A stretch of 64,000 nucleotides of DNA from an uncultured Gammaproteobacteria bacterium (GCA_963797555.1 CAWCPV010000016.1:96001-160000), one strand, 5' to 3'. Counted from the stretch's first letter, positions 5,388 through 29,597 are shown. Translations and numbers: made by a program. Notes: a model not told the origin generated them from the letters alone.

Positions 5388-5400
5388 GGGGGTAACCTCT

Positions 5401-10104: not shown

Positions 10105-10188
10105 CCATGCGGTTCTGGGATGGCCTGCTGATACCACTTCCTAATATTCAGTGGTATAAGAATGCCGAGACATACATGGAGACCGGAG

Positions 10189-10760: not shown

Positions 10761-10816
10761 GCAAGGGAGGCGCGCTAGACTTCACGCAAGGTCAGACACA
10801 TTCAAAGGTGCATAGA

Positions 10817-11047: not shown

Positions 11048-11199
11048 AGCTTGCGACGCGGCTCTGAGTGAAGCCGTCCTCGACCGTCCGACCGACAGGC
11101 TGCGCAAAGCGGCCATGTACAACCGTCTCGGCCTCGCGGCCCGGTCCGTGGTTTAAGATCGCCACCACTCGCTCACGCAACGATTGGGAGCCACCCCCC

Positions 11200-11463
11200 A
11201 TGAACGCCGCACCTGGCTCGATCACTCCCCTCGAATACCTGGAAGGCCGCATCACCGTCCATCCGGACATCTGTAACGGGCATCCGACCATCCGCGGCAT
11301 GCGGATCACGGTCGAGACAGTTCTCGGTTTCCTGAGCGCCGGCGATTCCCAGGCGGACATCCTGCGCCAGTACCCGTCGCTGGAGCCGGCGGACATCGAC
11401 GCCTGCCTGCGCTTCGCCGCCGACTTGATGGCCCATCGTTACACCCTGCAAAGCGTGGGCTGA
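11200..11463 (+). CDS. DUF433 antitoxin-like protein
   Basis: RITVHPDICNGHPTIRGMRITVETVL and YPSLEPADIDACLRFAA. Confidence 0.88.
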   Translation: MNAAPGSITPLEYLEGRITVHPDICNGHPTIRGMRITVETVLGFLSAGDSQADILRQYPSLEPADIDACLRFAADLMAHRYTLQSVG

Positions 11464-11794
11464 TGCCCCGCTTCGTGGTCTGCCGTAACGGTTCTCCATC
11501 CGGTCCGGCGAGGACTTTGTTCACATGCGGGACATCGGTGAGACCTGGACCGACTCCCAGATCTGGAAGTACGCCGAGGATCGAGACATGGTCATTGTCT
11601 CGAAAGATGCGGATTTCTCGGATCGGGCGATGATCAGCGTCCCGCCGCCGCGTATGGTCCACATCCGCTTCGGCAAGATGCGCATCCGGGACTTCCGTGA
11701 TCTGCTCTCCAGCATGTAGCCGCGCATCGTCGGCCTGAGCGCCAAGAACCGAATGGTGCAGTTCTATCAGGACCGAATCGAGACCATCGAGTGA
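11463..11794 (+). pseudogene. DUF5615 PIN-like toxin, disrupted
   Basis: DSQIWKYA and IVSKDADFSD motifs. N-terminal break and in-frame TAG at 11717. The same frame ends in a TGA overlapping the pglZ GTG. Confidence 0.75.
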
Positions 11795-14098
11795 CCGGCC
11801 CGACCATTCTGGAACACCTGATCCAGCGGATTCGGCAAGCGGCCGTTTACAACCGCCACGACCTCGCAGCGCCGTCCGTGGTGTTGTGGACCGACGGAGA
11901 GCGCCTGTGGTCGAAGGTCATCCCTCTGCTGCGCGATGCCATGCCCGAGCTGCTGATTCTGGCCCCGAGATCGCCGACGAGCGCACCGGGCCGTCGACTT
12001 GGCTTCGTTATCGGCTCGCCCGCATCAATTGGCAAGAGACACCGGTCGTCTACCTGCCCGGGATACCGCGCCACGCATTTCGCGGTGCGGCCGGGTTCCC
12101 CGAGGCCGCGCGGCACCTATTCGCGCTTCAGTACCAGGGCCAGTTCTGGGGCCAATTGAACGGCAAGGACTGGACGCCGTCGGCCTTCCTGTCGTCACAG
12201 GAGGGCGGGCTCGGCCTCGATCTCGCCCGAGACCGCGCGACCCTGGAGGCGGTGAGCGCCCAACTGGTCCACGTGTTGCGCGCAACCCCCGAAAGCCTCG
12301 CGGGCCGGCGCCTCGAGGCGGCGGACTTCCATGGATTGGCGGCGGGCGATCCGGTCGGCCTGCTGTTGGAGTGGATGGCCGCCGAGGACGGCAAGCACGA
12401 CGACTGGCCCCTGAGCGCTGGACCGGATTCAAGGCCCTGTGCAAGCCGACCTTCGGTCTGGACCCAGACAAGGACGGCATCATCATCGCGGTAGACAAGC
12501 TGGTCGCGGGAGGAGGAATCTGGGATCAAGTGTGGACGCGTTACCGCCAGGCGCACAAGGCTTTCGCCGGGGTGCGCAAGGCACTGGATCTGGCGCGGCC
12601 GAAGGACCTGCTCGATGACGCCAACGACCGGATGCCGGCCGCGAACCGCAAGCAGGAGGCCGAACTGCGCTCGGGCCTCATGGGGCTCGCGGCGCTCCCG
12701 AAGGCCCGAGCACTGGAGAAGCTGAAGCAGCTCTGCGGGCAGCATGTAACTCGTGCGGATTCGCTCTGGGCGGACCTCGGCGAGGCGCCGCTGGCGCGGA
12801 CGGCCGTGCACTTGAAGACGCTAGTGGACGGCGCCGCCGCGGGGGGCTTGGGCAATGACTGGGAAGCGCTGGCCGCCGGCTACCTCGCCCGCGGCTGGCT
12901 CGTCGATGCTTCCGCTTGGCGCGCTTACGCTGCCGTGCGTGACGCACCGGATGTGGAGGCCGTGACGGCGGCACTGCGGGCCGTCTACCTGCCCTGGCTG
13001 GAGAACCTCGCGGAGCAGGTGCAGGGCTGGGCCGCCAGCTATCCCACCGCCGACCCGGCCAAGTGTCCCGTGTTCGGGCCTGCCCCCGGGACCGTGCTGG
13101 TGTTCGTGGACGGCCTTCGCTGCGACCTGGGCCTGGAGCTGGCTCGTTTGCTCCAAGAACACGGCCTTGCGGTGGAAATTGCAAGGCACTGGTCCGCCTT
13201 GCCCACGGTGACGGCGACGGCCAAGCCCGCGTGGCGACCGTTGGCGGACGGATTGGTCGGGAGCACTTTGTCAGAGGGGTTCGAGCCGCAGATCGCCGAG
13301 ACTGGAAAAAACCTCAAGACCCAAGCCTTCCGCAACCTGGTCGCCGACCTCGGCTGGCCCTGGCTGGAGCCGACGAGTACCGGCGACCCGACCGGCGCCG
13401 CATGGACCGAGACCGGTACCTTCGACCACGATGGCCATACGCAGGGGGCGCGCCTCGCCTGGCGGATGGAGGAGGACCTTCGGGCTGTCGGCCTGCGCGT
13501 ACGGGACCTGCTCCACGCCGGCTGGCAACGCGCGGTGCTGATCACGGATCACGGCTGGCTGCTCCTCCCCGGCGGACTGCCCAAGGTCGACCTACCGGCC
13601 CACCTGACCCAATCCCGCTGGCCCCGTTGCGCCGTGCCCCAGCCCGGTGCCCATCACGGGTTCGAGGAGTTGCCGTGGTTCTGGGGCGGGGGCCACTCCG
13701 TGGTCTGCGCACCGGGTGTCTCGGCCTTCAAGTCGGGCATCGAGTATGCCCACGGGGGCTTGACCCTGCAGGAAGCGCTGACGCCGATGCTGACGGTCAC
13801 AGCGGGCCAGCGGGCGGCGCAACCCATCGAGATCGCGAGCATCGAGTGGAAAGGCATGCGCCTGCGCGTGCAATTGAAGGGCGGGTTCTCCGGCACGGTC
13901 CTGGACATTCGCACGAAGCCGGCGGACGCGGGCTCTTCCGTGCTCGACTCCGAGCGGCGACTGCAGCCGCCCGGCGACGACGGGGCGGCCGCGCTGCTGG
14001 TGACGGACGACGAGTTCGAAGGTGCCGCCGCAGTGCTCGTGGTGATTCGGGACGGCGCGGTCGTGGCCAAGCAGCCGGTGACCATCGGTGGGGACTGA
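11791..14098 (+). CDS. pglZ: BREX phosphatase PglZ (type B-like), frameshifted
   Basis: VFVDGLRCD, LPTVTATAK, LITDHGW and YAHGGLTLQE alkaline-phosphatase-superfamily motifs. Frame breaks near 11960 and 12410. Confidence 0.88.
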
Positions 14099-14102
14099 AT
14101 CC

Positions 14103-16181
14103 ATGCAGCTCGACGCGCTCGACCAGATTGCGGCCAGGGCATTCGACGGCTTCATCGTCCGCAAGGACCTGGTGCGCCGCTTCAAGGGCCAGTATCCGGT
14201 GCCTACCTATGTGGGCGAGTTCCTGCTCGGACGCTATTGCTCCAGCACCGACGAGCGCGAGATCCAGGAGGGCCTGGAGATCGTGCAGCGCCAGCTCGAA
14301 AGCCGCACCGTGCGCGCCGGGGAGGAGGAGCTGTTCAAGGCGCGCGCCAAGGAGCAGGGCCGGGTGAAGCTGATCGACCTGATTACCGCCCGCTTGGACG
14401 CCAAGAACGATTGCTTCGTCGCCGAGCTGCCGAGCCTGCGGATTAGAGATGTCCGGATCGGCGACGAGCTGGTCCACACTCACGAGCGGATGCTGACCGG
14501 CGGTTTCTACGCCGAGGTGGATCTCAGCTACGACCCGAGCATCGCCGAGGAGAAGCATGGTCGGCCCTTCGGCATCGAGTCCCTGCGGGAGATCCAGCTC
14601 TCCAAGCGCGACGCTCTGGACACCATGGCCCGCGGGAGGATGCTCTTCACCTTCGAAGAATGGCGCAATTTCCTGTTGCGCAGCATCGGCCTGGAGCCCG
14701 AGAGCCTGACCGCGCGCACTCGCGACGTGATGCTCCTGCGTATGGTCCCCTTCGTCGAGAACAACTACAACGCCATCGAGCTGGGACCCCGCGGGACCGG
14801 CAAGAGCCATCTCTTCCAGCAGGTCTCGCCGTATGCGCACCTGGTCTCCGGCGGCAAGGCGTCGGTTGCGAGGATGTTCGTCAACAACAGCACCGGGCAG
14901 CGTGGGCTGGTGTGCCAATACGACGTGGTCTGCTTCGACGAGGTCTCGGGCATCACCTTCGATCAGAAGGATGGCGTCAACATCATGAAGGGCTACATGG
15001 AGTCCGGAGAGTTCAGCCGGGGCAAAGAGAGCATCCGGGGCTTCGGCAGCATCTACATGGTCGGCAACTTCGACGTGGATGTCGCGCACCAGCAGCGCAT
15101 CGGCCATCTGTTCGGTCCCCTGCCCCCGGAGATGCGCGACGATACCGCCTTCATGGACCGCATCCACGCCTATCTGCCGGGGTGGGATATCCCCAAGGTC
15201 AGCCGCGAGCAGCTCACGGATCACTTCGGCCTGGTGAGCGATTTCCTGTCCTCCTGCTGGAATCACCTGCGCGCTTCCTCGCGGCTGCAGAAGCTCCAGG
15301 GGCGCATCCACTTCGGCGGGGCGCTGAGCGGGCGTGATACGAACGCCGTCCACAAGACCATGAACGGCCTGCTGAAGCTCATGTACCCATACTCGACCGT
15401 CGAGGGAGGGGAAGGCGCCGAATACGCGGACCGAGAGATCCCGGACGAGGCCATCGAGTGGGCCGCCCGGCTCGCGCTGGAATGCCGCCGCCGCGTCAAG
15501 GAGCAGCAGAAGCGCATCGGCTCCGCGGAGTTCCGCAATACCCACTTCAGCTTTCAACTGGGCGTCGACGGCATCGAGCAGTTCGTCGCCACACCGGAGC
15601 TACAGAGCGAGGACAGCATCGGCGACGATCCCTTGCCGCCCGGGCAGGTCTGGGTCCTGTCACCCGGCGGCCCGGATGAGCATCCCGGGCTGTTCAGGCT
15701 GGATGCCACCGAGGGACCCGGCTCGGGAGTGAAGATCCTCAACCAGCCGCCGCCCGCCCCTTTCAAGGAGAGCGTGCGCTGCGCCGAGCAGAACCTTTAC
15801 GCCAGGGCGAGGGAACTGGTGGGCGACCGGGACCCGAGGTCGCATGAGTTCTCGGTCCAGATGCGCGCCTTCGATGCCAGCAAGACCGGCACAGCGACGG
15901 GTGTCGCCGCGTTGCTCGCCCTGTGCTCGGCGCTGCTGGAGAGAAGCCTCAAGGGCGGCCTGATCGTTGTCGGCGGGCTCAATCTCGGCGGGTCCATCGA
16001 ACCCATCTACAACGCCGTCAGCGTCGTCGAGGCCGCCGCCGACAAGGGGGCGAAGATGGTTCTTCTGCCGGTGACCACCAGAAAGCAGCTCATCGAACTG
16101 GACGACGCCATCGCGACACGCGTCACCCTGGTCTTCTACTCGGACGCTCGGGACGCGCTGCTCAAGGCGCTCATCGAGTAG
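14103..16181 (+). CDS. brxL: BREX Lon-like protein BrxL
   Basis: VPTYVGEFLLGRYC, ELGPRGTGKSH, VVCFDEV, AFMDRIHAYLPGW and a C-terminal Lon-like domain. Intact ORF. Confidence 0.93.
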   Translation: MQLDALDQIAARAFDGFIVRKDLVRRFKGQYPVPTYVGEFLLGRYCSSTDEREIQEGLEIVQRQLESRTVRAGEEELFKARAKEQGRVKLIDLITARLDAKNDCFVAELPSLRIRDVRIGDELVHTHERMLTGGFYAEVDLSYDPSIAEEKHGRPFGIESLREIQLSKRDALDTMARGRMLFTFEEWRNFLLRSIGLEPESLTARTRDVMLLRMVPFVENNYNAIELGPRGTGKSHLFQQVSPYAHLVSGGKASVARMFVNNSTGQRGLVCQYDVVCFDEVSGITFDQKDGVNIMKGYMESGEFSRGKESIRGFGSIYMVGNFDVDVAHQQRIGHLFGPLPPEMRDDTAFMDRIHAYLPGWDIPKVSREQLTDHFGLVSDFLSSCWNHLRASSRLQKLQGRIHFGGALSGRDTNAVHKTMNGLLKLMYPYSTVEGGEGAEYADREIPDEAIEWAARLALECRRRVKEQQKRIGSAEFRNTHFSFQLGVDGIEQFVATPELQSEDSIGDDPLPPGQVWVLSPGGPDEHPGLFRLDATEGPGSGVKILNQPPPAPFKESVRCAEQNLYARARELVGDRDPRSHEFSVQMRAFDASKTGTATGVAALLALCSALLERSLKGGLIVVGGLNLGGSIEPIYNAVSVVEAAADKGAKMVLLPVTTRKQLIELDDAIATRVTLVFYSDARDALLKALIE

Positions 16182-16585: not shown

Positions 16586-18686
16586 TCACAGCGACGCCGT
16601 GAACCCGATGGCCCGGCTGGTATGCGCGCCTTTCAGGCGGCTCTCGGTGTCGAGGCGCTCCAGCAGCGTCTCGGCGACCAGGTCCTCATCGCTCAGGCGA
16701 GTCTGACGCAGCACGGTGGCGAAGTCACCCGGCGTGAGGTTGTCGAGCCGCGCCAGCCGGAACAGGATCTGCTCACCCAGCCTTTCCGCGCCTGGAGCGG
16801 ACTCCCGGAGCGTCGCGAGGAACAGCCGCTCCGCCTGTTCGCGGGTCAGGAAGCGGTACTCCACCTTGAAGTCGAAGCGCCGCAGCACCGCCTCGTCGAG
16901 CTGCTCCATGAGGTTGGTGGCGCAGACGAAGATGCCCTCGAACTCCTCCAGTTGCTTGAGGAGCTCGTTCACCTGAGTGACCTCCCAAGAGCGAACGGCG
17001 CCCTGGCGGCTCCGGAGGAAGCTGTCCGCCTCGTCCAGCAGCAGAATGGCGCCTTCTGAGGCTGCTTGCCGGAACATGGCGGCGATGTTCTTCTCCGTCC
17101 GCCCGAGGTACATGTCGAGAAGATCCGAGGCGCGCCGCTCGATGAGCGGGCAGTCCAGATGCTCGGCAAGATGCTGGCCGAAGGCGGTCTTGCCGGTACC
17201 CGGTGGACCGTAGAGGCAGACCCGACCCTGCCGCGTGCGTCCGAGCCCCTCGGCCAGGGACCGCAGGTCGGTGCTGGCATGGCAGTAGTCGAGGTCGTAT
17301 GGGAGCGTCGGGAGCCCCCGAGGCTTCAGCGAAAAGGGAATTCCCCGCACCTCGAAGTGCCCGCGCAAGGTCCGTTCGAGGACCGCCTCCATCTCGCCGG
17401 GGGTGTCCGCGCCGAGGCGGGCCACCACTTTGCGGGCGCGTTCGATGTCGGCCGGGGTGAGGTGCTCGTTGCCGGCCAGGCGGTCGAGGGTCTCCTCGCT
17501 CACCGGCAAGTCCCCGAGGGCGCTCTGGAGCATGCCTCTTCGGACCTGCCGGGGCGGCACCGGAAGCTCCTGCACATAGTCGAAGCGGCGCAGGTAGGCG
17601 GGGTCGAACTGGTCCACGTGGTTGCTGAGCCAGAAGGTGGGTACCGGATTCTCTTCCAGGAGCTGGTTCACCCAGCCCTTGGTGCGGCCCTCGGAGGAGG
17701 ATCGACCGAGCCAGAAAGCGCTCGGCCGCGGGAAAACGTCCTCCACCTCGTCGAACAGGATGAGGTGGCGGGGATGCCGGGAGAGCATGCGCTGGCACAG
17801 GCGGTAGGCCCGGAAGCGGTCGGCGCCCTCGATGCCGTCGCCGTCCTCGTCTCCCGAGGCCACCTCGTAGAGGGTCGCCCCGAGCGCTTCGGAGAGCGCC
17901 CGCGCAAGCTCGGTCTTGCCGGTCCCCGACCGGCCGTGGAGGAGGATGTTGACGCCCCGAGCGCGGGTCTCCAGGACACGCTGGATATATCGGAGCAGAA
18001 GCTCCACCGGCTCCTTCAGGTGGGGATACTGGTCGAGGCGTACCCTCGCCCGGGGGCTCGGGCGGAACTGGGCGACGAACAGGGCGTGGAGATCGCGCTG
18101 CTCGGTCAGCAACGCACTGCCCGCGCCCTTGAGGAGCTCCAGCTTGCCCGCTAGTGCATAGGACCCGCGGTGGTCCACCTCGACCAGGCCCGCAGCACGC
18201 AAGGTGCCCTCCCGATGCAGGGCGCACTCGATGTCCGGGCGCGCCAGCTCGAGCACCGCGGAGAGCAAGCGGACGAGATCGCCACTATTCAGATCCCCAG
18301 CGCGTTCCCCGCACTCCCGCAGCAGGTTGTCGCTATGGAGCACCACCGTGAACAGCAGCAGTTCGGTCTCCGCCGCGCTGAGATCGAGCAGCTTCGCCAG
18401 ACGGCGGACGTTGCGCATCAGCGGACCGGAGCGCCGCGGCGGCCCGCTCGGCGTCTCGCGCAGTCGGCTCCGCACCGCCTGCCGGACCTGGGCGGAACTC
18501 AGGTCCTCCAGGGTTTCCGCATCGAGCCCGAGCAGGGGGCACAGGAGGTCCTGGTCCACTATCGGCGGAACAATGCGCGGCCGCCTCATGCCGTAAGCCA
18601 AAAGCCGCAGGGACCAGAGTCGAGACTGGGCCTCGAAGCCTTCCACGCTGCCCGCACCGAACGAACCGCGACGACGACGTCTCGAT
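16586..18686 (-). CDS. Tandem AAA+ ATPase
   Basis: Two Walker A motifs (GRSGTGKT, GPPGTGKT), two Walker B motifs (ILFDEVE, LLLDEAD), two RRFD arginine fingers and a C-terminal IGF. Start uncertain (about 18590-18690). Confidence 0.88.
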
Positions 18687-18720
18687 GGGGTGATCCTCTC
18701 TGCCAGGAATGGTAGGGACC

Positions 18721-18795
18721 ATTCTGGCCCAGGATCGCGACAAATCATGTCACCTGCTGTCGTGATTTGTCGCAACGGGTGCTTACGCTTAAACT
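18721..18795. promoter_or_regulatory. Divergent promoter with inverted-repeat operator (putative WYL site)
   Basis: Perfect 11-bp inverted repeat GCGACAAATCA (18737-47) / TGATTTGTCGC (18763-73). TGTCGC-N10-TACGCT points to the WYL gene and TGTCGC-N10-CAGAAT to the AAA gene. Confidence 0.7.
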
Positions 18796-18824
18796 GAACG
18801 ACTGCGGAGACGCAGAGGCGAGCC

Positions 18825-19850
18825 ATGAAGACTAAGACCGACACCTTGCTACGGCAGTGGGCGATGCTGCAGCACATCCCTCGCTACCCGAGGACCATCA
18901 CCACCCAGACCCTCAAAGACCGCCTGGCCGACGAGGGGCACGAGGTCTCCAAACGCACCGTGGAGCGGGACCTGGTGAAGCTGTCGCGAGTCTTCCGCCT
19001 GGGCTCGGAGACCCGGAACCGGGTGCAGCACTGGTTCTGGCCGGAGAACCTGGGCGTGTTCGACATTCCGGGCATGGGTCCGGCGGCGGCCCTCGCCTTC
19101 CGGCTGGCGGAGGCTCATCTCCGGCCGCTTCTTCCTCCGGCGACCCTGCAGTTGCTCGGCCCCTACTTCGAGCGCGCCAAGGAGATCCTGGACGCCGGCA
19201 ATTCAGGCCCCAAGGGTTGGCAGGACAAGGTCCGGGTGATTCCGCGCGGCCCCGAGCTTCGGGCGCCACAGGTCAAGCCCGAGGTCCAGCAGGCGGTCTA
19301 CCAGGCGCTGCTGGAGGAGCGACGGCTCCGGGTGGACTACCATCCGAAGGGCGCCGATCAGTTCCAGACTTACGAGGTGGGTCCCCTCGGGCTGGTGGTG
19401 CGGGAGGGCGTGCTCTATCTGGTCTCGACCCTGTGGGACTACACGGACATTAAGCAGCTCGCTTGTCATCGGATGACGACGGCGAACGTGCTGGAGAAGC
19501 GGGTGCGGCGGCCGCAGGGGTTCGATCTGGACCGCTACATCCGGGGCCAAGGGGAGTTCGCGTATCCCACCGGAAAGGGGAAGGTCCGACTGCGCGCTCT
19601 GTTCGACGAAGCGGCCGCGGAGCACCTGTACGAGCGACCGCTCGCAGACGACCAAGAGCTGAAGACGCGGCGCGACGGCCGAGTGCTCCTGACCGCCACG
19701 GTGCTCGACACCTACGAGCTGCGCTGGTGGCTGCTGGGGTTCGGGGAGCAGGTGGAGGTGGTGGGGCCGAAGGGGCTCAGGCGGGAGTTCGCCCGTATCA
19801 GTCAGGCGATGGCGGGGCGCTATTCAGGATCCGGAACGGAAGCAGCGTAG
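18825..19850 (+). CDS. WYL-domain transcriptional regulator (wHTH-WYL-WCX)
   Basis: N-terminal HTH (VSKRTVERDL), PLGLV..GVLYLV, HRM and WWLLGFGEQVEVVGP. Confidence 0.92.
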   Translation: MKTKTDTLLRQWAMLQHIPRYPRTITTQTLKDRLADEGHEVSKRTVERDLVKLSRVFRLGSETRNRVQHWFWPENLGVFDIPGMGPAAALAFRLAEAHLRPLLPPATLQLLGPYFERAKEILDAGNSGPKGWQDKVRVIPRGPELRAPQVKPEVQQAVYQALLEERRLRVDYHPKGADQFQTYEVGPLGLVVREGVLYLVSTLWDYTDIKQLACHRMTTANVLEKRVRRPQGFDLDRYIRGQGEFAYPTGKGKVRLRALFDEAAAEHLYERPLADDQELKTRRDGRVLLTATVLDTYELRWWLLGFGEQVEVVGPKGLRREFARISQAMAGRYSGSGTEAA

Positions 19851-20082
19851 TTGGTTGCCCGAGGGACCCTTGGGCCGGCGACCCAGGGCCGCGAGGCGCG
19901 CCATCCGCGGCCGCGCGGGAGCCTTGGAAATCAAACAGAAGCGGAACACCAGGTGCCATTTGACCATGGGCCAGTCCGAACAGGCGGCTTGCCGAACTGG
20001 GAGCCACGCCTGCCAGGGGACCGGTCCGGTCCCAACATAGAAGACGCGGTTGCGGTGTTCGCCGCGTGGTAGACTGCGTACG

Positions 20083-20367
20083 ATGGCTACAGTGACTTTC
20101 GACACCCTCAAGTACGTCAAGCGGCTCAAGGAATCCGGGCTTCCCGAAGGTCAGGCGGAGGCACAGGCCGAAGCGCTGGCCGACGTGCTGCAGACCAACC
20201 TCACCGACCTCGCCACACAGCGAGACCTGCGGGCTCTAGAGGACCGTTTGATTGCCCGGATAGATAAGCTGGATGCCCGGCTGAGCGGTGAGATCGCCCT
20301 CCTCAAGTGGATGCTCGGCCTGCTGCTGGGCGGCGTCGCGGCACTAATTCTGAAGGCATTCTTCTGA
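20083..20367 (+). CDS. DUF1640/CCDC90-like coiled-coil membrane-anchored protein
   Basis: FDTLKYVKRLKESG, QAEA, LATQRDL and LLKWMLG followed by a C-terminal TM segment. Confidence 0.8.
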   Translation: MATVTFDTLKYVKRLKESGLPEGQAEAQAEALADVLQTNLTDLATQRDLRALEDRLIARIDKLDARLSGEIALLKWMLGLLLGGVAALILKAFF

Positions 20368-20540
20368 CGGGGCTGACTCTGGACATTGCCCGAGCTCCGC
20401 CGTGTCGCGCCTTCGATGCACGAGCTGCATCCCGTTGGACGCGCCTTAGTGCACCTGCGGCAGTTCGGCTGCAACCCATCCGCCCCACAGCAGGGCACGC
20501 CGGCCAACGGCATACCTTCCACCCACGAGCCACATGTCAT

Positions 20541-20640
20541 CGTCATTCCGGCATGGATTGCCGGAATCCAGAGACCAGGGACGGTCATCCGGATCACATC
20601 CCTGTGCCTAGATTTCCGCCACTCCATGGCGGAAGGAGAT
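20541..20640. repeat. CGTC-family REP doublet (degenerate)
   Basis: CGTCATTCCGGCATGGATTGCCGGAATCCAG plus a degenerate inverted partner at about 20607-20640. Confidence 0.7.
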
Positions 20641-20776
20641 TTGTGCAGGGACATGGCTCAAGGGTTTGCGCTGGCACCCGTCGAAGCTGCCCAGCCCCGA
20701 GACCGTCCGATTGACGGACACCCCGTAGCTTCCTATGCTGGAGGCTGTCAACCATAGCGTCCGGCCTACATTGGCC

Positions 20777-21430
20777 ATGTCCCTCGCGCTGAAGGTCACC
20801 ACTGCCGACGGAAAGGAATTCGCCGGCCCCTACTTGCTGCGGGTGGGTGGGTGGACCGAGGAGCGCTATTTCGCCGAGGCGCCTGAATCACAAATCGTCG
20901 AATTCGATGACGGGGACCTCATCGTGCCGTCTCCTCTCAACATCCACCACCAAGACTTGGTCGGCTTTCTGTCGTTCCTGCTGCGCGGATACGTAAGCTC
21001 GAAGGGCTTGGGGCGGGTCTTCAATGGTCCAGCCGTCGTCCGGCTTCGCCCCGGCCTCGACTACGAGCCCGACATCTTCGTCGTGCTGGCCGAACAGTTG
21101 GCTCAGATCGGCAAGCAGTACATCTCGGGTGGGCCAGCGTTTCTCGTCGAGGTCATCTCGCCCGGCGGACGCAGTTACGACTTGCATTCCAAGGCGGACA
21201 ATTATCGCCGATACGGCGTCCGCGAGTACTGGGCTATCGACCCGGAAACACGCACGCTCCATCAGCACAACCTTTCCGATCACGATGAAGGCCGTTACCT
21301 CGTCAGAGAATACGTCAGTGGCCGGGTGGAAAGCACCGTGCTGCCCGGGTTCTGGATCGACGCCTCGTGGCTCTGGCAGGAGCCCTTACCGGAGGGGTTC
21401 TCGCTCCTGGAAGAGTTGCTTCGGTCCTGA
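20777..21430 (+). CDS. Uma2 family endonuclease
   Basis: HQDLV, EPDIFV, LVEVISP and YRRYGVREYWAIDP. Confidence 0.9.
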   Translation: MSLALKVTTADGKEFAGPYLLRVGGWTEERYFAEAPESQIVEFDDGDLIVPSPLNIHHQDLVGFLSFLLRGYVSSKGLGRVFNGPAVVRLRPGLDYEPDIFVVLAEQLAQIGKQYISGGPAFLVEVISPGGRSYDLHSKADNYRRYGVREYWAIDPETRTLHQHNLSDHDEGRYLVREYVSGRVESTVLPGFWIDASWLWQEPLPEGFSLLEELLRS

Positions 21431-21586
21431 GAGCGCGCTGTTCCTGGCACAGGACATGCCTTGCCAGTCAGTGGCCGTGAGGCGGAGCTTGGGACGGCGG
21501 TGCGCTGCGGATACCGGCCTCGGTCGTGTCGTGGGAAATAAAACAACGACCCCAATCACGTTGAAATGTGCGCGCGAGCTTGGTAC

Positions 21587-21717
21587 TTACACACAATTCG
21601 TCATTCCGTACAGGGAGTGTACGGAATCCAGGGGCAAGGATGCCGAGCCATGCCGTCCGTGGCCTCTGGATTCCGGCTTCCCAGCCGGAATGACAGTTGA
21701 GACCAAGAGTTGTGTAA
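21587..21717. repeat. CGTC-family REP doublet within a MITE-like unit
   Basis: CGTCATTCCG..CGGAATCCAG / CTGGATTCCGGC..GCCGGAATGAC (21599-21694), bracketed by TTACACA and TGTGTAA. Confidence 0.7.
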
Positions 21718-21736
21718 CGGCAAGGGCCTACGGGGT

Positions 21737-22129
21737 TTACAGATGGCTCAGGGTCACCGGCCGAACCAGCTCGGAATAGCGTGCCAGGAAGGCATCCGAG
21801 GTCACCAGGTAGGCGGGCAGCGTTTGTGCTTGAGCGACCAACAGGCGGTCGAACCGGTCGTGGTGGTGCCAAGGTAAGCGTGCGACAGCAAACGCGTGGG
21901 CTGCGGCGATAGGCAGCTCGGTGAATCCGGTATCGATTGCCACTCGGTGCACCTCGTCGGGCGGAACGGAAAAGTCGCCCCGTCCCAGTGAGGTCTTGAT
22001 GGCGATCTCCCAAATACGGGCAGCGCTGAACAGGATCTCACACTCGGGATCCCGAAGCTGCGCATGTACACCGCCGGGCAGCCGCTCTGGATCGATGACG
22101 GCTGCCAGCAGAACGTTCGTATGGATCAA
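21737..22129 (-). CDS. vapC: VapC PIN toxin (N-terminus possibly damaged)
   Basis: SAARIWEIAIK and HHDRFDRLLVAQAQ. The conserved first Asp reads as His (IHTNVLL). Confidence 0.8.
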   Translation of the reverse strand: MIHTNVLLAAVIDPERLPGGVHAQLRDPECEILFSAARIWEIAIKTSLGRGDFSVPPDEVHRVAIDTGFTELPIAAAHAFAVARLPWHHHDRFDRLLVAQAQTLPAYLVTSDAFLARYSELVRPVTLSHL

Positions 22130-22147
22130 GAGCTGTTACCCGGACAC

Positions 22148-22387
22148 CTAATCCTCCCCTTCGAACATGCGCCGAATCTCATTGGCATGCAGGGTGTCGA
22201 AATCTTCGGGAACTTCGAAGTGGCCCCTGCCGAGACCGAGCTGCCGCGGTTGCTTGCGCGGCTGCAGCGGCACCAGGCGCGCGATCGGCTTGCCGGCCTT
22301 GGCGATGATGATCTCCTCGCCCGCGGCCGCCTCCTCAACGTAGCAGGACAGGTGGGTCTTGGCCTCGTGGATGTTGATGGTCCTCAC
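22148..22387 (-). CDS. Phd/YefM family antitoxin
   Basis: INIHEAKTHLS and GEEIIIAKAGKPIARLVP. Confidence 0.9.
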   Translation of the reverse strand: MRTINIHEAKTHLSCYVEEAAAGEEIIIAKAGKPIARLVPLQPRKQPRQLGLGRGHFEVPEDFDTLHANEIRRMFEGED

Positions 22388-22592
22388 GGCGGAAACCCCG
22401 ACGGAGCAACTGACCGGACCAAACCTTAGTTCATGCCTGGATCGGTGTCGATGGTGCCCGACGCCCGAAAAGAATTGCGTCCCCGTTTACATCCCAAAGG
22501 CAAGACGAAAGACGCGACCCCAACCCGATCCCGCGCGGGGTATGCCGGCTGGTGCGGGGGCTACCGGCCAACCCCGAGCACCGCCTGGATTG

Positions 22593-23314
22593 TCAGCCGA
22601 ACAGGTCCCCTGACGGCAGGGTTTCACGGCGGGGCTTGGGTGGCCGGCCGGCCTTGCCGGGGCTCGCCTTGCGTCCGAGTGCCGCTTCCACCTGCAGCCG
22701 GAAGCGTTCGCCGCCGAGCGCGAAGTTTCCGTTGGTGGCCAAGCGGATCTCATCAACCGTCTCCGGATCGAGCTCGCTGCGGAACAGCAGCCGATACGCT
22801 TCCCGCGTGCGGTCTCCGAACGGCCAAGCGCGAGGTACTGGGCATGCGGTACCACGTGCTTGGAAGTCTTGCCTTCAGCGTTCGTCCGGTAGCTGGACCA
22901 GCGGTAATAGCGCGGATGACTGACCATCTGCGCCCGCACGGGATTCAGCTCGATGTAGCGGTAACAGGCCAGCACATAGTTCTCTTCCTGCGCCACCCAG
23001 GATCGAAAGCGTCCCTCCCACAGCGTCCCGCTGCGCCGATAGGTACGATTGACGTACTGCACATAGCGCTGGCCCAGGTGCTTCATCAACAGCGAAGCGC
23101 TGTCGGCTTTCTGCGGCGTGAGCAACAAGTGCACATGGTTGGTCATCAGCACGTAGGCGTGGACCGCGCAGCCGAACTTCGTTGCATTCTCGGCCAAACG
23201 CTCCAGGTAAAGTACGTAGTCTTCGTCGGCGAAGAAGCAGGCGTCGCGGTTGTGACCGCGCTGGATCAGGTGCAGCGGAACACCGGCAAGCGCAATGCGA
23301 GGGCGGCGGGGCAT
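22593..23314 (-). CDS. REP-associated tyrosine transposase (RAYT, Y1 HUH), one frameshift
   Basis: MPRRPR, HLIQRG, YVLMTNHVHLL (HUH), LWEGRF and YIELNPVRA. Frame break near 22800, ending ..GRP..GDLFG-stop. Confidence 0.85.
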
Positions 23315-23322
23315 ACGCGCGC

Positions 23323-23556
23323 TTAGTGGTTCTCGGCCTCCGCCGCAAAAACCTCGGCCGTCAGCCCGGCCGCCCGAATCAGGCTGCGCAGCGTTCCCCT
23401 GGCGACTTCCTTGTGATCCGGCACCGACAGCGTCGCGATACGGTCGGGCTTGACGAGGATAATGTGGCTGCCGCGCCGTCGCACCACTGAACCGCCCAGC
23501 CTCTCGAACACATGAACGACCTCGCGCCCGCTGAGGACCGGCAGGACCGGCGTCAC
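23323..23556 (-). CDS. hicA: HicA toxin
   Basis: SGREVV, RRRGSHIIL and SVPDHKEVARGTLRSLIRAAGL. Confidence 0.88.
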   Translation of the reverse strand: MTPVLPVLSGREVVHVFERLGGSVVRRRGSHIILVKPDRIATLSVPDHKEVARGTLRSLIRAAGLTAEVFAAEAENH

Positions 23557-23759
23557 GCGGAAACCTCGATCTGACGCGTCTCGATGGTCCGGGGAAGCCC
23601 CCGCTCGGCCCGTACTTCCAGGCACAGCTTGATGACCTCGGCGATATTGGCGAGCGCCTCATCTTTCGTGGCTCCCTGGCTAACGCAACCGGGAATCGCC
23701 GGGCACTCCACGATCCAGATGCCATCTTCGTCCCTGTCGATCGTCACGTTGAACTTCAT
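23553..23759 (-). CDS. hicB: HicB antitoxin
   Basis: IDRDEDG and ECPAIPGCVSQGATKDEALANIAE. Confidence 0.88.
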   Translation of the reverse strand: MKFNVTIDRDEDGIWIVECPAIPGCVSQGATKDEALANIAEVIKLCLEVRAERGLPRTIETRQIEVSA

Positions 23760-23969
23760 CGCATCGCACTCCGCGGGGTGGGGTGTGTCATCATGCCAAA
23801 TCAAGAGGCGCCGCCAAGACAATGGTGGTCTGTCCCCGATCGCCCATGGTTGCGGGCACGGTCCACAGAAATCGTTCAGGGTCCGCCTGCGATTCGAAGT
23901 AGCCACGTTGGCAAACCATTTCCCTCGCTGCCACACTAACGAGGTGACACCGACAGAGGAGTCCAAGCC

Positions 23970-24332
23970 GTGAGCGCCACACCGACGCCACTTGCCCTCG
24001 AGCGAGAAGCTCCCCCCCTGCGCCAAGACGCGAACGGAGTGATCCGCGTCGCGCAAACCCGCGTGACGCTCGAGAGCATCATCTCCCTCTTCGAGCAAGG
24101 GGCGAGTCCCGAAGAGATTGCGCTGCGCTACGATGTCCTGGATCTGCATGACATCTACGCGACCCTGAGCTACTACCTCGGTCATCGGCAACAGACGCAG
24201 GAGTACCTGGACCGCGCACGTCAAGTATCGCTCGGGGCACGGCGTGACGCGGAGCGCCGCTCAGGCGCTGCGGAGATACGCGAGCGTCTGATGCGCTACC
24301 GGAACCGCCCCGATGCTCAGTCTGCTGGCTGA
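23970..24332 (+). CDS. DUF433 antitoxin-like protein
   Basis: GVIRVAQTRVTLESII, GASPEEI and DIYATLSYYL. Confidence 0.85.
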   Translation: MSATPTPLALEREAPPLRQDANGVIRVAQTRVTLESIISLFEQGASPEEIALRYDVLDLHDIYATLSYYLGHRQQTQEYLDRARQVSLGARRDAERRSGAAEIRERLMRYRNRPDAQSAG

Positions 24333-24663
24333 CGAAAACCTCGACGCGAACATTATGCGCGGGGTCCTGCGACGCGTCCGCGACATCGACGTCGTCCGAG
24401 TGCAGGACGTAGGCCTTACCGGGACCGACGATTCGAAGGTTCTTGCATGGGCCGCCGAGCACGGCCGCGTGCTGGTCACACACGATGTCGAGACGGTGAC
24501 GCGGTTTGCCCTCGAGCGCGTCCATGCGGGTCTGCCGATGCCCGGCGTGATTGAGATCATCGCATCGGCCTCGATCGGCAAAGCTGTGGACGACCTGGCA
24601 TTGGTGCTCGAATGCTTGGCGGAAGGCGAGCTGTACGACCAGGTTCTCTACCTACCGCTGTAG
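24313..24663 (+). CDS. DUF5615 PIN-like toxin
   Basis: LLADENL, GTDDSKVLAWAAEHGRVLVTHD. Confidence 0.88.
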   Translation: MLSLLADENLDANIMRGVLRRVRDIDVVRVQDVGLTGTDDSKVLAWAAEHGRVLVTHDVETVTRFALERVHAGLPMPGVIEIIASASIGKAVDDLALVLECLAEGELYDQVLYLPL

Positions 24664-24836
24664 TCGGGCAATGGAGGCCGATACGTGATCACCGTGCCGC
24701 CGGGGTAACGCGATAGGAACTCTCCTAGCTTCGCACCCGAACCCGACCCGTACGAGAAGACAATCGGGGTCTGTCGCCGATTATCGCGAAACGGTCTCGC
24801 ATGGCCCGCACGATACGACGTCCTCGCCGGAGGTTA

Positions 24837-24888
24837 CAAGGCGAGAACTGACCCTGGATCCCCAAGGCGAGAACTGACCCTGGATCCC
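24837..24888 (+). repeat. Perfect 26-bp tandem duplication
   Basis: CAAGGCGAGAACTGACCCTGGATCCC twice, followed by a partial TGGATCCC copy. Confidence 0.85.
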
Positions 24889-25167
24889 GCTGGATCCCGC
24901 CCTCGGAGCCGGGCTGAAGGGACTCCGCGTCATCCTGGGCGCCGGCCCAGGCACCGGCGTTCGGGAGCGTACCAGGCGGGTCATGCGGCCTGCCATTGGA
25001 GAGCAACGGGTTCCCCACAATGCCTGCGGGGGTGACCAGCGTTTGTGTACCCGCCAGAAGAAAACGACGACGATCCATCTGAGACCTCCGTGCCGAAGGC
25101 CGTGGGGCGTAGCTCCTTGCGCCAGCACCGCCAAGTGCACAGCGCAGCGTGCTCCCCACTTGGATAC

Positions 25168-25878
25168 CTATGGTGTCACTGCGTGCGCCCCGGCGCCGCC
25201 CAGTCCCCCTCCCTGCAGGCCCCAGTATGTCGCCTGATAATCAAGGTCGCTTCTAAGATTGGCGCCATCCATTAGGCGTAGCGCCGCGATCCCCTTGTCC
25301 AGGAGTGGACCCAGGTTATCGCTTGTCTGGATTGCCACCAAGGGCCACGGCACAACAGCCAGTTCGTCCAAGTCGTCGCTCCCGCCTGCCCCAAGTAATT
25401 CCTCCGGCCACGGTTCTTCAGGAAACTTGCGGAACATGGAAGCGGCGGACGGATTGGCGACCGATGAATAGATGGCGAGCGCAATTTTGCTGCACGTCTG
25501 CGAAGGCCAAACACCCCCCACGGCCTTGCATCGCGCTCGAGCAAAATATCCGAATGGTGTCCAAAATAGGCCATCAGGATTGAACTTCATAAAACAAATA
25601 GCCCATACGAAATGGTCATTTGTCTGCGAAAACTCTTCTCTCCCCTCGATGAATTGACCCCAGTAAATACGAGGCAAGATGAAACCCTCATCGCCCACCC
25701 AGCTCCAGGTTTCGCAAGTAAATTTCTTCGTGTAGCCAATCACCTTACACGTAAGTCCTTTCTCTTCGAGCACTTGCCTGATAGTCTCCGCTAACCAGTA
25801 CATGCTGCGAAAGTACTTGTTGGCTTGGTAGTAGGCCTTGGCGCATTCCAGCCCCCTGTCCGTCATTGCATTGTTCAC
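25168..25878 (-). CDS. Hypothetical protein (lower GC)
   Basis: About 236-aa ORF with a GGAGGA RBS before GTG 25878, about 30 bp after the reconstructed nuclease stop. No family recognised. Confidence 0.65.
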   Translation of the reverse strand: MNNAMTDRGLECAKAYYQANKYFRSMYWLAETIRQVLEEKGLTCKVIGYTKKFTCETWSWVGDEGFILPRIYWGQFIEGREEFSQTNDHFVWAICFMKFNPDGLFWTPFGYFARARCKAVGGVWPSQTCSKIALAIYSSVANPSAASMFRKFPEEPWPEELLGAGGSDDLDELAVVPWPLVAIQTSDNLGPLLDKGIAALRLMDGANLRSDLDYQATYWGLQGGGLGGAGAHAVTP

Positions 25879-26230
25879 CCTTAGTCCTCCGTGTTTTGTT
25901 GGAAAATTATCAAACACTCTGACCGTGAAACGGCGCAGGAAACGTTTCCAACTCGCCACCGAAGCGCGCCAAGTACTTCTGTGAACATTGCGTCGCCATC
26001 GGAGCGTAATTGACGAGCGGGCCACAACACGTCCAAGTCAGAGTCTCAGCGGCCGCGGCAAATGCCGTGGGGCGCCAAATGGGAAATTGGTGGGCACCGC
26101 TAAATCGCCCGAACCCTTTATGCTCGCACAGATCCCGGGTAACCGTTCAGACCCTCCCACCAGTTGATCGATGCGTTAAGAGCGCGTCCAGCGCAGCAGA
26201 GCCGCTCGGCTTGTCGTACACTCCCGGCTC

Positions 26231-26949
26231 ATGGATCAAGAGCCCTCTATTCCGCAGGCGATCACGGCGAGCGGCCGGAGCTTTACCGAAGAGGAGATCT
26301 CCGCCATCGTCCGAATGGTGTCGATGTGCGTGGGCCTGAGTCGTTTTGAGCTGGCGCAGACCATCTGTGAGCTGCTGGGGTGGAGACGGGACAACGGAGC
26401 CCTGAAGTCCCGCGAGGGTCGGGATCTACTGGAGCGGTTGGAAGCTCGGGGGGATCTGGGGCTTCCCGCCAAGCGCACGGGCAGGCCCAAGGGGCGGCGC
26501 ACCTGCACTGCGCAGACCGATCGGGGCGAACGCCGCGGCGAGATTGCCGGTGCGCTGCAGGAGGTGGCCCCGGTGGAGCTTCAGTTAGTGCGCCAGGCCG
26601 AGGGACGGGCATTGTGGCGCGAGCTTCTCGCGCGCTATCACTACTTGGGCTATGCCACACCCTTTGGGGCCCAGTTGGTCTATCTCATCCGCTCCCAGCG
26701 CCGGGAGGGGGAGGTGTTGGGCGGGCTCACCTACACCAGCCCGGCCTGGCGCATGCAGGCCCGCGATGCGTGGATCGGCTGCGCTTTGCCGGGACCTGCT
26801 ACCGGGCGGCCAACTGGTGCGAGGTGGGCGAGACCAGCGGACGCGGGCGCATGGACCGTGCGCACCAACGCCATGGCAGAGCGATAAAGCGGGTCTTCCT
26901 CTACGCTCTGCACCCGCAGGCCAGAGAGCGCCTGCGCGGTGAGCGCTGA
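26231..26949 (+). pseudogene. DUF4338-like passenger gene with frame break
   Basis: SRFELAQTICELLGW, YHYLGY and RDAWIG, then an out-of-frame jump straight to RFAGTCYRAANW. Confidence 0.7.
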
Positions 26950-26951
26950 AC

Positions 26952-28521
26952 TCAAGCGGGCGCAGGAAGCGGCGGTGCCTCAAAGCCGCGGCGTCGGTGG
27001 GCGAGGACATCTCTGAGATAGCACAGCGGGGAGCTCAATCGCAGCCGAGAAGTCTCGATCACACTGGCGAGCAGCGCCAGCGCCCGGCTGCCTTGTTCGC
27101 TGCGGGTCCCCTGGCTGATGCGACGCAGAATCACCCAGTGACGCAGCGCCCGCTCCGCCACGTTGTTGGTCAGCGGCAGCTGAGGCTCATCCAACACCCG
27201 GAAGATCGCCCCCCAGTCGTTGAGCAGCTCCTTGCCCAGCGCCTGGGCCTTGTCATAAGGGCAGCAGCTCATGCGTTCACACAGGGCCGTGAGCTCGTTG
27301 AGCTCCGCCCGGGTGGGCTTGCCGCAGGGAGCCGCCCGGTCCCTCGCGGGCGTGATAGACGGCCTGCATCAGCGCATCGAGCAGGTCATAGACCGCCTGG
27401 CCGTAGCCCTGGAGGGTGGGCGAGAGGCAATCCCTCAGGCCCCGGGCCTTGCGAATGAGATGCGCCCAGCAACGCAGGCGCTTGGCATAGTCCCGATAGA
27501 CCTGGTACCCATCGCTCATCAGATAGCCGCAGAAGAGATCCTCGATGAGGTTCTGAAACATCTCTTTGGCGCGAGAGCCGACCAAGAACAGCGCCGTCGA
27601 GGCCGAGATGAACACCCATAACCACAAGGGCTCTCCCCATTGCTTGTGCGGTGTCTCATCGGCATGCATGAGGGCCGCTTCCAGCAACTGGGTCACCAGC
27701 TCATCCTCGACCGGCTCGCAGGCACGGGCGGTCTCCATCACGCATTGGTGGAGGGTGCCGATGCCGAGCGCCAGCCCAAACACCTCGTGCAGGAACTCCC
27801 GGACCAGGCGGATGGACAGGCGCATCCGAAACCGCAGCCAGACGATGAAGGCGCACAATCCCGGCCCCACCAGGCGCCACTCGCCAAGCTCCACCCCTCG
27901 CCAGCATCCCAAGTGCTCGGGCGCGCGGTGCGGCGCCTGCCGGGTCTCATGACCACAGTCGCAACGGCTCTGGTAGTATACCTGCCGCGTGCAGGTCAGG
28001 CGCAGCCCCGGCGCCTGCTCATCGCCAAAGACCAAGTCCAGCCTATCAAAGGCGGTGTAGGGCTTCGCCTGCTCAGGATTGAGCGCCCCACCACACAGCG
28101 CACAACTTCCCGGCCGATGATGGTCCCAATCGGTGACTGTCAGCTTCTGGGCGCGCCCGAATCCCTGGGAGCCAGGCTGCCGGCCCGCTCGGCGCTGCGT
28201 CCCTGAGGTCTTGCCACTCGTGTCCTTTGCGCCCTTCTGGCCGCCAGCCCCGGGGAGGCCATCCTCCTCAGAACGGCTCTTGGCCTCCTCGTCCTCAGGA
28301 CCGGCGTCGGCCTCTTCGTCCTCCCGCGCACGCAGCCAGGGGTCTTGACTGCTCGGCGGACGAGAGCTATTGGAGGGACTCTGATTGAGCCGCTCCCACG
28401 CTTCCTTGAGATCCTGCAGCAGGCGGATGCTCAGCGCTGCCAGCGCATCGGGATCCTTCTGCCTCAGCTCCAGAATGCGCTCCTCGCTGAGCTGACGAAG
28501 GTCGTGCTCCTTGAGCACCAT
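26952..28521 (-). CDS. IS66 transposase (frameshift near 27300)
   Basis: NSSRPPSS, HADET, LMSDGY, CWAHLIR and TNNVAERALR. Confidence 0.88.
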
Positions 28522-29597
28522 GATTGTGTGTGACAGTGAGGTCGAGGAACATCCTGCCAAGGGCACCCAACTGTCTCACGCTGGAACCGTTTTGTCCAGC
28601 CCTCCGGGTCAAAATATTCCAGGGGGGTGAACGGTTACGATCCCGGAGGTCCTTTACGATTCGGACAGGGCCGAACTGCGCGAGCTCAGACGTTTTGCAC
28701 AATGCATCTAATGCCTCTGGAAGATCGTTCCAGCTTAGCCAGTAAAGCTCCACGTGCCGGAGTCCTTCCCGATCTGCCTTCTCCCGCGAGGCATCCATGA
28801 TATCGGTCGGATAGGCGTGGTCTCGGGTCAAGAAGATCTCCACCTTGCGACAGGCGGGCCAGCGCTGCGAGGCCCCACGCATTTGTCGCACCAACTGGTT
28901 CATCGATCGCCTGCGCGCCTCTTCCACATCCGCTGCTGCTAAACTACTGGTGCCCGCATCTTGTGATGCAGGTGAAGGGTCGTCGCTGCTCAGACCACTG
29001 CGGTACTTGACTTCGATGAGCACAACAGTCTGTCGGCGTCCGGTTTCGGAGATTTCCACCTGGAGGTCAGGCTGAACGGTGGAATCGCCGTCCGGCAGAG
29101 TGGGCCAGAACGCCACGGCTTGCACTGTCGGTTGCTCGAATCTCAATCGATCGTGCTCCGCGTTCGGTCCTCCGCGGCGATAAGCTTTTTCCAGAAAGGG
29201 TAACAGTAACTGCTCGGGCGGAAAGTAACGCATCGGCCCGAACACGTCACCGGTAAGTTGGTCCTCTGCACCCGCACAAGCCGGCTTTCCGTAGATTTCC
29301 GCAATCATTGATGTAAGCCCCTGAAGACCATCAGACAACATGCAAGCTGGCACTGTACCGAAAGCAAAATCCGCCGTCCATCACCCCAGTTCACGCGCGT
29401 CTTGTCGGCCCGCTCGTTCGGCCGTACCCGGCCCGACGCCGTTTCATAAACTTCCTATCGGGGCAGGTCCGCAAGACAGCGTGCCGCAGCCAGGGGGACC
29501 TTACCCTGTGGGACGGAAGGGGAGACGGCCCTTGACCAGCCTGGGCGCTGATCCGCCAGCGCAACGCCAGCTTCGGCTGGCGCCGCCGGAAGGTCCC

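Follow-up and report, generated by a model that had tools for sequence, protein, structure and literature searches.

Terminal repeats of a TIRYT-type transposase gene bracket predicted toxin-antitoxin modules in a variable island beside a BREX locus

The DNA analysed here, called the window, is a stretch of 64 kb from an uncultured gammaproteobacterium (CAWCPV010000016.1:96001-160000, on contig C16 of genome G000); all coordinates are those of the window, and other C-numbers denote contigs of the same genome. The region from 20 to 25 kb is a variable island adjoining a bacteriophage exclusion (BREX) locus. It holds a Y1/HUH transposase gene of the TIRYT type, hicBA directly upstream of this gene, and two directly oriented copies of the gene's terminal inverted repeat (TIR), between which a second putative toxin-antitoxin (TA) pair, DUF433-DUF5615, is located. 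The region is probably a TIRtron whose TIR array encloses TA modules, with at least two TIRtrons settled in the island. A sequence-only reading of the same DNA had described it as an integron-like array of small cassettes around a transposase, with a plus-strand motif (A-rich, then G(A/T)CCC(C)) at nearly every junction. The 11 words quoted for this motif, referred to below by coordinate, were all found in place.

The transposase gene and the repeats of the window

The element is made up of the following features.

22593-23314, minus strand: Y1/HUH transposase gene, TIRYT type (TnpA_Y1 subclass 2.1), recognised by Pfam Y1_Tnp and its motifs; frameshift near 22803
22487-23725, minus strand: open reading frame (ORF) holding the Y1_Tnp match (Pfam, 2.1e-10)
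22496-22592, minus strand: 3' flank of the Y1 gene, conserved with the orthologous locus L146 (see below); contains word 22508; no recognisable inverted TIR
23323-23625, minus strand: hicA as listed ORF, its start probably near 23556, judging from L146; Pfam HicA_toxin 8.9e-18
23553-23762, minus strand: hicB; Pfam HicB_lk_antitox 7.1e-9
23816-23843, minus strand: TIR copy D3a, upstream TIR of the hicBA-Y1 unit; contains GGGGACAGACCAC and word 23821; 24.5 bits at 23843..23818
23970-24332, plus strand: DUF433; Pfam 2.9e-11
24313-24663, plus strand: DUF5615, PIN-like protein; Pfam 3.5e-11
24757-24784, minus strand: TIR copy D3b, in direct orientation with D3a; contains word 24762; 26.9 bits at 24784..24759
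24793-24888, minus strand: remnant of a second TIRYT, with a tandem TIR (24837-24862 and 24863-24888) carrying GGGTCAGTTC, a leader, a start codon at 24800-24802 and about three further codons; contains words 24838 and 24864

Read along the minus strand, the order is tandem TIR and truncated second TIRYT, D3b, DUF5615 and DUF433 in antisense, D3a, a leader of about 50-70 nucleotides (nt), hicB, hicA, an 8-nt gap, the Y1 gene and its 3' flank. DUF433-DUF5615 sits between the direct copies D3a and D3b. The two copies stand out as a 25-nt direct repeat (23816-23840 and 24757-24781) identical at 22 of 25 positions; the maximum over 60 shuffles was 21, and none reached 22. A position matrix for the TIR was made from the proximal TIR of 68 orthologous loci, the window being excluded, and was run over the 64 kb on both strands. 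Its two best matches were D3b (26.9 bits) and D3a (24.5 bits), both on the minus strand, and the third, at 8.3 bits, was the complement of the D3b match. On 40 shuffles the maximum score had a mean of 4.2 and a peak of 21.4. A GGGGWSAS-type box, GGGGACAG, is located in D3a at 23835-23828 on the minus strand, in the gene's orientation, and TIRYTs are described as flanked by TIRs sharing GGGGWSAS (PMC3733652). Repeat identity and matrix scores show D3a and D3b to be copies of the TIR of the lineage of the window Y1 gene. The plus-strand start of D3b, GGGGTCTG, resembles the Tn3-family inverted repeat; this candidate was dropped, there being no Tn3 transposase nearby and the copies being direct.

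A second family of repeats is represented by the perfect 26-nt tandem at 24837-24888. The adjoining stretch 24793-24854 matches C3:79414-79478, C7:296669-296728 and C7:297105-297164 at 83-85% (blastn), and at both C7 sites, as at C17:141886, the second-family repeat and its leader precede the start of a Y1 gene.

The translation of the window Y1 gene carries NHVH (...LMTNHVHLLL...), WE (...TLWEGRF...) and YIELNP (...YRYIELNPVRA...). Since these motifs match those in Table 1 of PMC6006769, the gene was placed in subclass 2.1. In that account subclass 2.1 comprises the TIRYTs, equals group 1 of Bertels, was found in 14.9% of strains, and has no repetitive extragenic palindromes (REPs) near its genes. 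The gene had been taken in the sequence-only reading for a REP-associated tyrosine transposase (RAYT). This identification did not hold, as the NCBIfam model REP_Tyr_transpos (NF047646) gave 67 bits against a cut-off of 80, and the gene is a TIRYT. In a tblastn comparison with an intact paralogue, residues 1-173 were matched in one frame and residues 176-230 in another. The C-terminal tail of the protein is present in the shifted frame, as a 49-amino-acid (aa) piece in which no Pfam helix-turn-helix (HTH) family was found; the typical TIRYT is described as about 238 aa long with an HTH-like tail at its C-terminus. An extra base at the frameshift point is present in a copy on C2 and in some contigs of relatives. 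This copy (C2:221280-221941), the only other close one in the genome, covers most of the gene at 91% identity and is degraded, with in-frame stops.

G000 holds 30 Y1_Tnp matches. Other paralogues of subclass 2.1 have a GGGGTCAGACACG repeat 57-67 nt upstream, and two of them also have an inverted GGGGTCAGACACG copy about 18 nt downstream (with one mismatch in one case); most of the 36 GGGG[AT]CAGAC sites of the genome are members of this repeat family. True REPtrons are present as well, at C3:823468-824102, C7:203956-204581 and C14:55035-55601, where RAYT-like genes lie between inverted GTAG-tagged REPs. Such REPs number 15 in the genome and none in the window. A TIR-like sequence with GGGGACAGACC occurs at C7:203934, 3 nt from a REP. 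Separately, another Y1 gene of subclass 2.1-like type was seen in five copies (C4:649997-650305, C4:651459-651767, C18:47996-48303, C2:122393-122709 and C4:563553-563840); at the nucleotide level they are about 69% identical to the gene of the window. All five are broken at about the same place, three ending in ...TLWDSLG, and they look like a repeated, cut-down element.

Orthologous loci and the hicBA-Y1 unit

A scan of species-representative genomes yielded 79 loci with orthologues of the Y1 gene (62-92% identity); none of the conclusions depends on G039 or G145, two genomes flagged as unpublished. A TIR with GGGGACAGACCAC, in the orientation of the gene, was found within 200 nt upstream at 65 of the 79 loci, an inverted TIR within 200 nt downstream at 64, and both together at 57. 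A TIR with GGGGACAGACCAC marks a widespread lineage, to which the window gene is assigned. In the window about 520 nt, including hicBA, separate the upstream TIR, D3a, from the Y1 start.

The same arrangement was found at three of the loci, in two other genomes. L146, on a contig of an Ectothiorhodospiraceae metagenome-assembled genome (MAG), encodes a Y1 protein with 92% identity; its positions 33-1379 align to 23840-22496 of the window with 87.9% identity along 1350 nt. A second copy of the TIR is found at the end of this contig. L147 and L148, two loci of a single betaproteobacterial MAG, align to 23838-22639 at 75%. All three alignments begin at the TIR (23840 or 23838) and take in hicB and hicA, hicA of L148 being detected by tblastn only. 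The distance from TIR to Y1 start is 520-525 nt in the three loci, as in the window. Outside the unit, blastn found nothing common to these loci and the window stretch searched. Sequence comparison shows TIR-hicBA-Y1 to be a conserved unit, present in two other genomes.

TA modules between TIR copies at other loci

A locus was called expanded if its farthest same-orientation TIR lay 300-2500 nt upstream, which was the case for 19 of the 79; all 148 ORFs of at least 55 aa in these stretches were run against Pfam. TA-type matches were obtained in seven of the 19 loci: HicB/HicA in L146 and L147, HicB in L148, BrnT in L161, a ribbon-helix-helix (RHH) and PIN pair in L167, and Gp49 in L175 and L186. 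At a further locus, L226, RHH and PIN genes occupy 3095-3738 between TIRs at 3094 and 3745, at distances of 1 and 7 nt. For comparison, 14 loci provided control stretches that matched the TIR-bounded ones in length but lay outside the outermost TIR; among their 86 ORFs a TA-like family was met in one locus (L148, DUF2442), and the other loci held housekeeping genes. TA modules were therefore found inside the TIR stretch in 6 of 14 loci and in the control in 1 of 14 (one-sided Fisher P = 0.038). Predicted TA modules of different families were in this way shown to lie between TIR copies beside orthologous Y1 genes.

Genome-wide, the TIR was counted in five genomes at 12, 12, 32, 52 and 11 copies, a control with the reversed pattern giving 0. 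Because the copies are so few per genome, the bracketing is not a by-product of a ubiquitous repeat. In two genomes the copies cluster at the Y1 locus, with 8 of 12 and 10 of 12 found there. The latter ratio is that of the array in genome G042, where 10 of the 12 copies are spread over 13.5 kb together with cold-shock, dehydrogenase and IS21 fragments and one TA pair.

Contigs from relatives

Attempts to compare the order of cassettes among relatives gave little. In 40 relatives, all of them related at the level of class only, nothing syntenic with the 7.3-kb region was found. Loci collected by a metagenome scan with AAGACAATNNNGGTCTGTC, at least 120 in number, gave no blastn match to 18000-27000 of the window; the pattern was too loose and returned mostly low-GC gut or unrelated contigs. 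The DUF5615 protein had matches in 2 of 400 genomes of the class at 1e-10, one of them being the window's own genome, which was not informative.

Logan contigs, which are short, from four marsh or soil runs were also placed on 18000-27000; the best run holds 0.21 of the sampled words, and uncovered stretches were not used. A joint from 24775 to 21535 was seen in one contig each of the runs X1 and X2. Of its two ends, 24775 falls within D3b, immediately 5' of GACAGACC when the minus strand is read, and 21535 is 1 nt before word 21536. A weak TIR-like 9-mer is present at about 21515-21534 and was not registered in the matrix scan. One of the contigs with this joint also matches 21589-22010 with 5 differences in 422 nt. 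The joint may reflect a different order of cassettes, a circle, a tandem duplication, or simply the presence in the relative of an intact TIR copy at this place; the joint is the sole direct hint of a breakpoint at a TIR. Another joint, 23162-24833 (shorter side 26 nt), was rejected as a deletion and is best read as the TIRYT gene of another organism matching both the conserved HUH stretch and the second TIR family. The joint 19095-25628, with a side of 20 nt, is too weak to interpret. The same applies to 22148-23328, seen in one metagenome contig with a side of 41 nt: it skips 1179 nt comprising phd and the Y1 gene, has 8 other letters in between, and would put vapC right after hicA.

The junction motif and the modules outside the array

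The remaining part of the island, at lower window coordinates than the Y1 gene, contains these features.

20050-20367, plus strand: DUF1640-like ORF; PF07798 at 31.1 bits, under the cut-off of 33.5
20517-20668 (outer limits by eye; blastn core 20531-20655): element E1, like a miniature inverted-repeat transposable element (MITE), between the DUF1640-like ORF and Uma2; about 20 genomic matches at 74-89%, 13 copies aligned
20735-21430, plus strand: Uma2 (Pfam)
21583-21735 (blastn 21583-21730; right end by eye): MITE-like element E2, a full inverted doublet abutting the vapC stop; over 20 copies in the genome with identities of up to 95%, 23 aligned
21737-22129, minus strand: vapC/PIN; Pfam PIN 1.1e-6
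22148-22387, minus strand: phd, forming a TA pair with vapC; Pfam PhdYeFM_antitox 2.3e-11

The gene content given in the sequence-only reading was confirmed by Pfam for Uma2, PIN/vapC, Phd, Y1_Tnp, HicA, HicB, DUF433 and DUF5615, with DUF1640 remaining below its family cut-off. The proposed junction motif fared differently. Six intergenic segments (1821 nt in total) contain the core G[AT]CCC 10 times on the plus and 9 times on the minus strand; in 500 dinucleotide shuffles the count averaged 8.4, and it was at least as high as observed in 30% of them. For G[AT]CCCC the counts were 4 and 2. Distinct cores with AA 4-14 nt upstream numbered 6 on the plus strand and 4 on the minus strand (shuffle mean 2.75, P = 0.053), or 5 and 4 after the second tandem copy was dropped (P = 0.13), and they occupy 4 of the 6 segments (P = 0.14). 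Since the motif was defined after the sequence had been viewed, these P values provide no evidence of enrichment or strand bias, and as written the motif is neither enriched nor strand-biased at the junctions.

Four of the 11 words (23821, 24762, 24838 and 24864) are TIRs of the two TIRYT families, all in one orientation, and the plus-strand form G(A/T)CCC(C) roughly resembles STSWCCCC, the reverse complement of the TIR consensus GGGGWSAS. With the TIR matrix the other seven reach at most -7.8 bits, and they look like chance. Among them are 5592 and 10708, which had been put forward as related words at TA junctions within BREX, and 31541 at the supposed island edge; the matrix lends them no support. 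A short motif picked by eye can thus be mainly noise yet hold a real signal. What stands of the claim of same-strand junction repeats linked to the HUH enzyme is that such repeats delimit hicBA and DUF433-DUF5615. At the borders of DUF1640, Uma2 and phd-vapC no match to the TIR matrix was found, and these modules and the other junction words are outside the TIRtron array.

E1 and E2, of about 150 nt each, lie one on each side of Uma2. They are composed of inverted hairpin halves, GTCATTCCG...CGGAATCCAG, with ends near CATG..TTACACACA, and their half-site pattern occurs as 35 half-sites in G000, mainly in inverted doublets. They were considered as REPs of the Y1 gene and rejected in this role: of the 30 Y1_Tnp matches only the window's gene is near a copy, and the TIR matrix does not match them.

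The absence of an integrase, also noted in the earlier reading, holds for the 18 ORFs of 16.6-28.6 kb that were run through Pfam, none of which gave a Phage_integrase match. Scans of the window with Rfam at gathering score and for tRNAs gave zero matches, the Rfam result not settling whether an attC site is present. A promoter scan of 21400-25000 returned 0 sigma-70-like sites and is uninformative on hicBA-Y1 transcription.

Comparison with known elements

The nearest described system is the TIRtron with its TIRYT (PMC3733652, PMC6006769). In common with it, as far as the sections consulted go, the window element has an HUH/Y1 core with NHVH, WE and YIELNP, a putative product of about 230 aa with a C-terminal tail, here in the shifted frame, and a GGGGWSAS-type repeat upstream in the gene's orientation; there are no REP hairpins, there are several copies per genome, and copies of the repeat are also found single, paired or clustered. 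Unlike the described TIRtrons, it has its TIR about 520 nt from the gene with hicBA between them, a second direct TIR around another TA pair, no recognisable inverted downstream TIR and a frameshifted gene, and passenger genes are unmentioned in the sections of the two papers that were covered. The position of hicBA, the second direct TIR and the missing inverted TIR are departures from the known TIRtrons.

With the REPtron and its RAYT, TnpA-REP (PMC3333891, PMC5581495), the element shares a related Y1 enzyme and repeats amplified beside the gene, and there too the unit seems non-transposing while the repeats spread. In E. coli, hicA-hicB was found at the REPtron site in 24 strains, which already linked this TA family to a Y1 locus (PMC3333891, in the part consulted). 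The window differs in that its repeats are not GTAG-tagged hairpins, REP_Tyr_transpos stays below its cut-off and hicA is 8 nt from the gene start; whereas E. coli hicAB, by that account, replaces the REPtron, hicBA of the window is inside the element.

IS200/IS605 elements likewise have a Y1 HUH enzyme, and since it recognises their ends on a single strand, signals confined to one strand are plausible. Here, by contrast, the Y motif is Y...NP (YIELNP) and not Y...Q, there is no tnpB, only one other close copy exists (the degraded one on C2), and no subterminal hairpins were identified.

Like an integron, the region has small, often promoterless modules, frequently TA pairs, parted by a recurring oriented repeat beside a recombinase gene. 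It is unlike one in having an HUH/Y1 enzyme instead of an IntI tyrosine recombinase (there is no IntI among the 18 ORFs), in repeats that are not imperfect palindromes of the attC kind, in only two modules being bracketed, and in mixed orientation, with DUF1640, Uma2 and DUF433-DUF5615 on the plus strand and vapC-phd, Y1 and hicAB on the minus strand. The element is not a REPtron, an IS200/IS605 element or an integron.

Interpretation

That oriented repeats linked to the Y1 gene bracket predicted TA modules is supported as anatomy, and a mechanism can be proposed. A TIRYT enzyme would multiply its TIR locally, in the way supposed for TnpA-REP and bacterial interspersed mosaic elements (BIMEs), and direct repeats arising from this multiplication would bracket neighbouring small operons. 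Modules bracketed by TIRs could then be duplicated, excised or moved by TIR-TIR recombination, whether enzyme-mediated or homologous. The presence of hicBA in an operon with the transposase gene would stabilise the unit or couple its expression to antitoxin autoregulation.

Several observations weigh against a TIRtron array enclosing TA modules. The window, L146, L147 and L148 all gave no inverted TIR downstream of the Y1 gene (13-nt core, up to 2 mismatches), and the hicBA variant therefore lacks one defining TIRtron feature. The window's gene is frameshifted, so that there would be no present activity unless another copy acts in trans. In 12 of the 19 expanded loci the stretch holds non-TA genes or nothing recognisable, the former including an SDR, DUF488, an RHS protein, a dehydrogenase, a PEP-CTERM protein, Fic (L191) and an integrase fragment. 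The excess of TA modules is statistically weak, L147 and L148 belong to a single lineage, and variable islands commonly carry TA genes. At the orthologous locus L015 (2063-3252, G025) the slot between upstream TIR and Y1 gene that is taken here by hicBA is occupied by an IS3 element (orfA/orfB, by eye). No second DUF433-DUF5615 cassette with TIRs was found, the joint 24775-21535 rests on one contig per run in two runs with a shorter side of 38 nt, and the sections of PMC6006769 and PMC3733652 consulted contain no biochemical work on TIRYTs; in the latter, in-vitro assays are proposed only, and the function is left unassigned.

Some of these points would equally be expected if TA modules, MITEs and decaying Y1 elements had piled up independently in a permissive island, the TIRs being relics of nested or repeated TIRtron insertions with no functional tie to the TA genes. 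The IS3 element in the TIR-to-gene space and the non-TA genes of many expanded loci fit such a history. So do the IS66 fragments, DruA fragment and two MITEs of the window, and the state of its two TIRYTs, one truncated after about 4 codons and the other frameshifted; some 10 nt separate D3b from the point where the second TIRYT is cut off, as would be seen had one element inserted into the other. Against independent accumulation, the TIR-hicBA-Y1 order with its 8-nt hicA-Y1 gap is kept, with nucleotide identities of 75-88%, at three loci from two other genomes that by blastn share nothing else with the window stretch searched, five different TA families are found at the same position relative to the TIRs, and the TIRs of L226 are within 1 and 7 nt of the TA pair. 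We regard this explanation as rather unlikely, and the TIRtron with an array enclosing TA modules as the probable one.

A stronger form of that reading would make the TIRYT and its arrays a platform for HUH-based gene capture. Beside the transposase gene, small operons, TA pairs above all, would undergo insertion, excision and reshuffling in the form of single-stranded cassettes bounded by TIRs, in analogy to the integron with a different recombinase, and hicBA would serve as an addiction or regulatory module. Gene capture and shuffling driven by the transposase had been proposed in the sequence-only reading. The bracketing of TA modules by TIRs beside orthologous Y1 genes elsewhere and the one joint inside a TIR support a narrower form of that reading, in which oriented repeats tied to the Y1 gene delimit TA modules; capture itself found no support. 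Local multiplication of repeats around genes already present explains the same anatomy, and we consider the capture platform quite improbable.

Least tenable is the original integron-like scheme, in which a RAYT/HUH enzyme cuts and rejoins single-stranded DNA at a short oriented site at every junction and so stockpiles all modules including the TA pairs of BREX: it can claim the four words that are true Y1-associated repeats in a single orientation, the joint from within one word to 1 nt before another, and TIR arrays with genes between copies as in G042, but it is most improbable in view of the enrichment tests, which largely refute it, the seven words without resemblance to the TIR, the TIR-free borders of DUF1640, Uma2 and phd-vapC, genes on both strands, a broken enzyme gene, and the cold-shock, dehydrogenase and IS21 fragments in the G042 array itself.

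For the TIRtron array, no description of TA cargo was found in the literature passages covered. If TIR arrays regularly enclose TA modules and one lineage has a hicBA-transposase operon, this would provide a handle on the role of TIRYTs, namely local repeat amplification and the bracketing of cassettes. TIR bracketing, if true, would also be a possible route for the spread of TA modules through defence islands.

Neighbouring genes

The BREX locus includes BrxL at 14088-16181 and TA modules of its own: ParD/ParE (10162-10760), VapB (10751-11047), DUF433 (11068-11463) and, at 11525-11719, a short piece of DUF5615. A split or rearranged PglX is suggested by a GNAT gene (5221-6456) together with a weak match to an MmeI methylase (6487-8109). 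On the other side of the island, an ORF of 285 aa (25168-26025, minus strand) without a Pfam or NCBIfam match lies in the lowest-GC kilobase of that part of the window (0.556). It is followed by a fragment of DruA (Druantia) at 26231-26887 and by two pieces of IS66-family transposase at 26952-27272 and 27277-28566. The DruA and IS66 pieces of 26231-28566 are decayed defence and insertion sequence (IS) genes.

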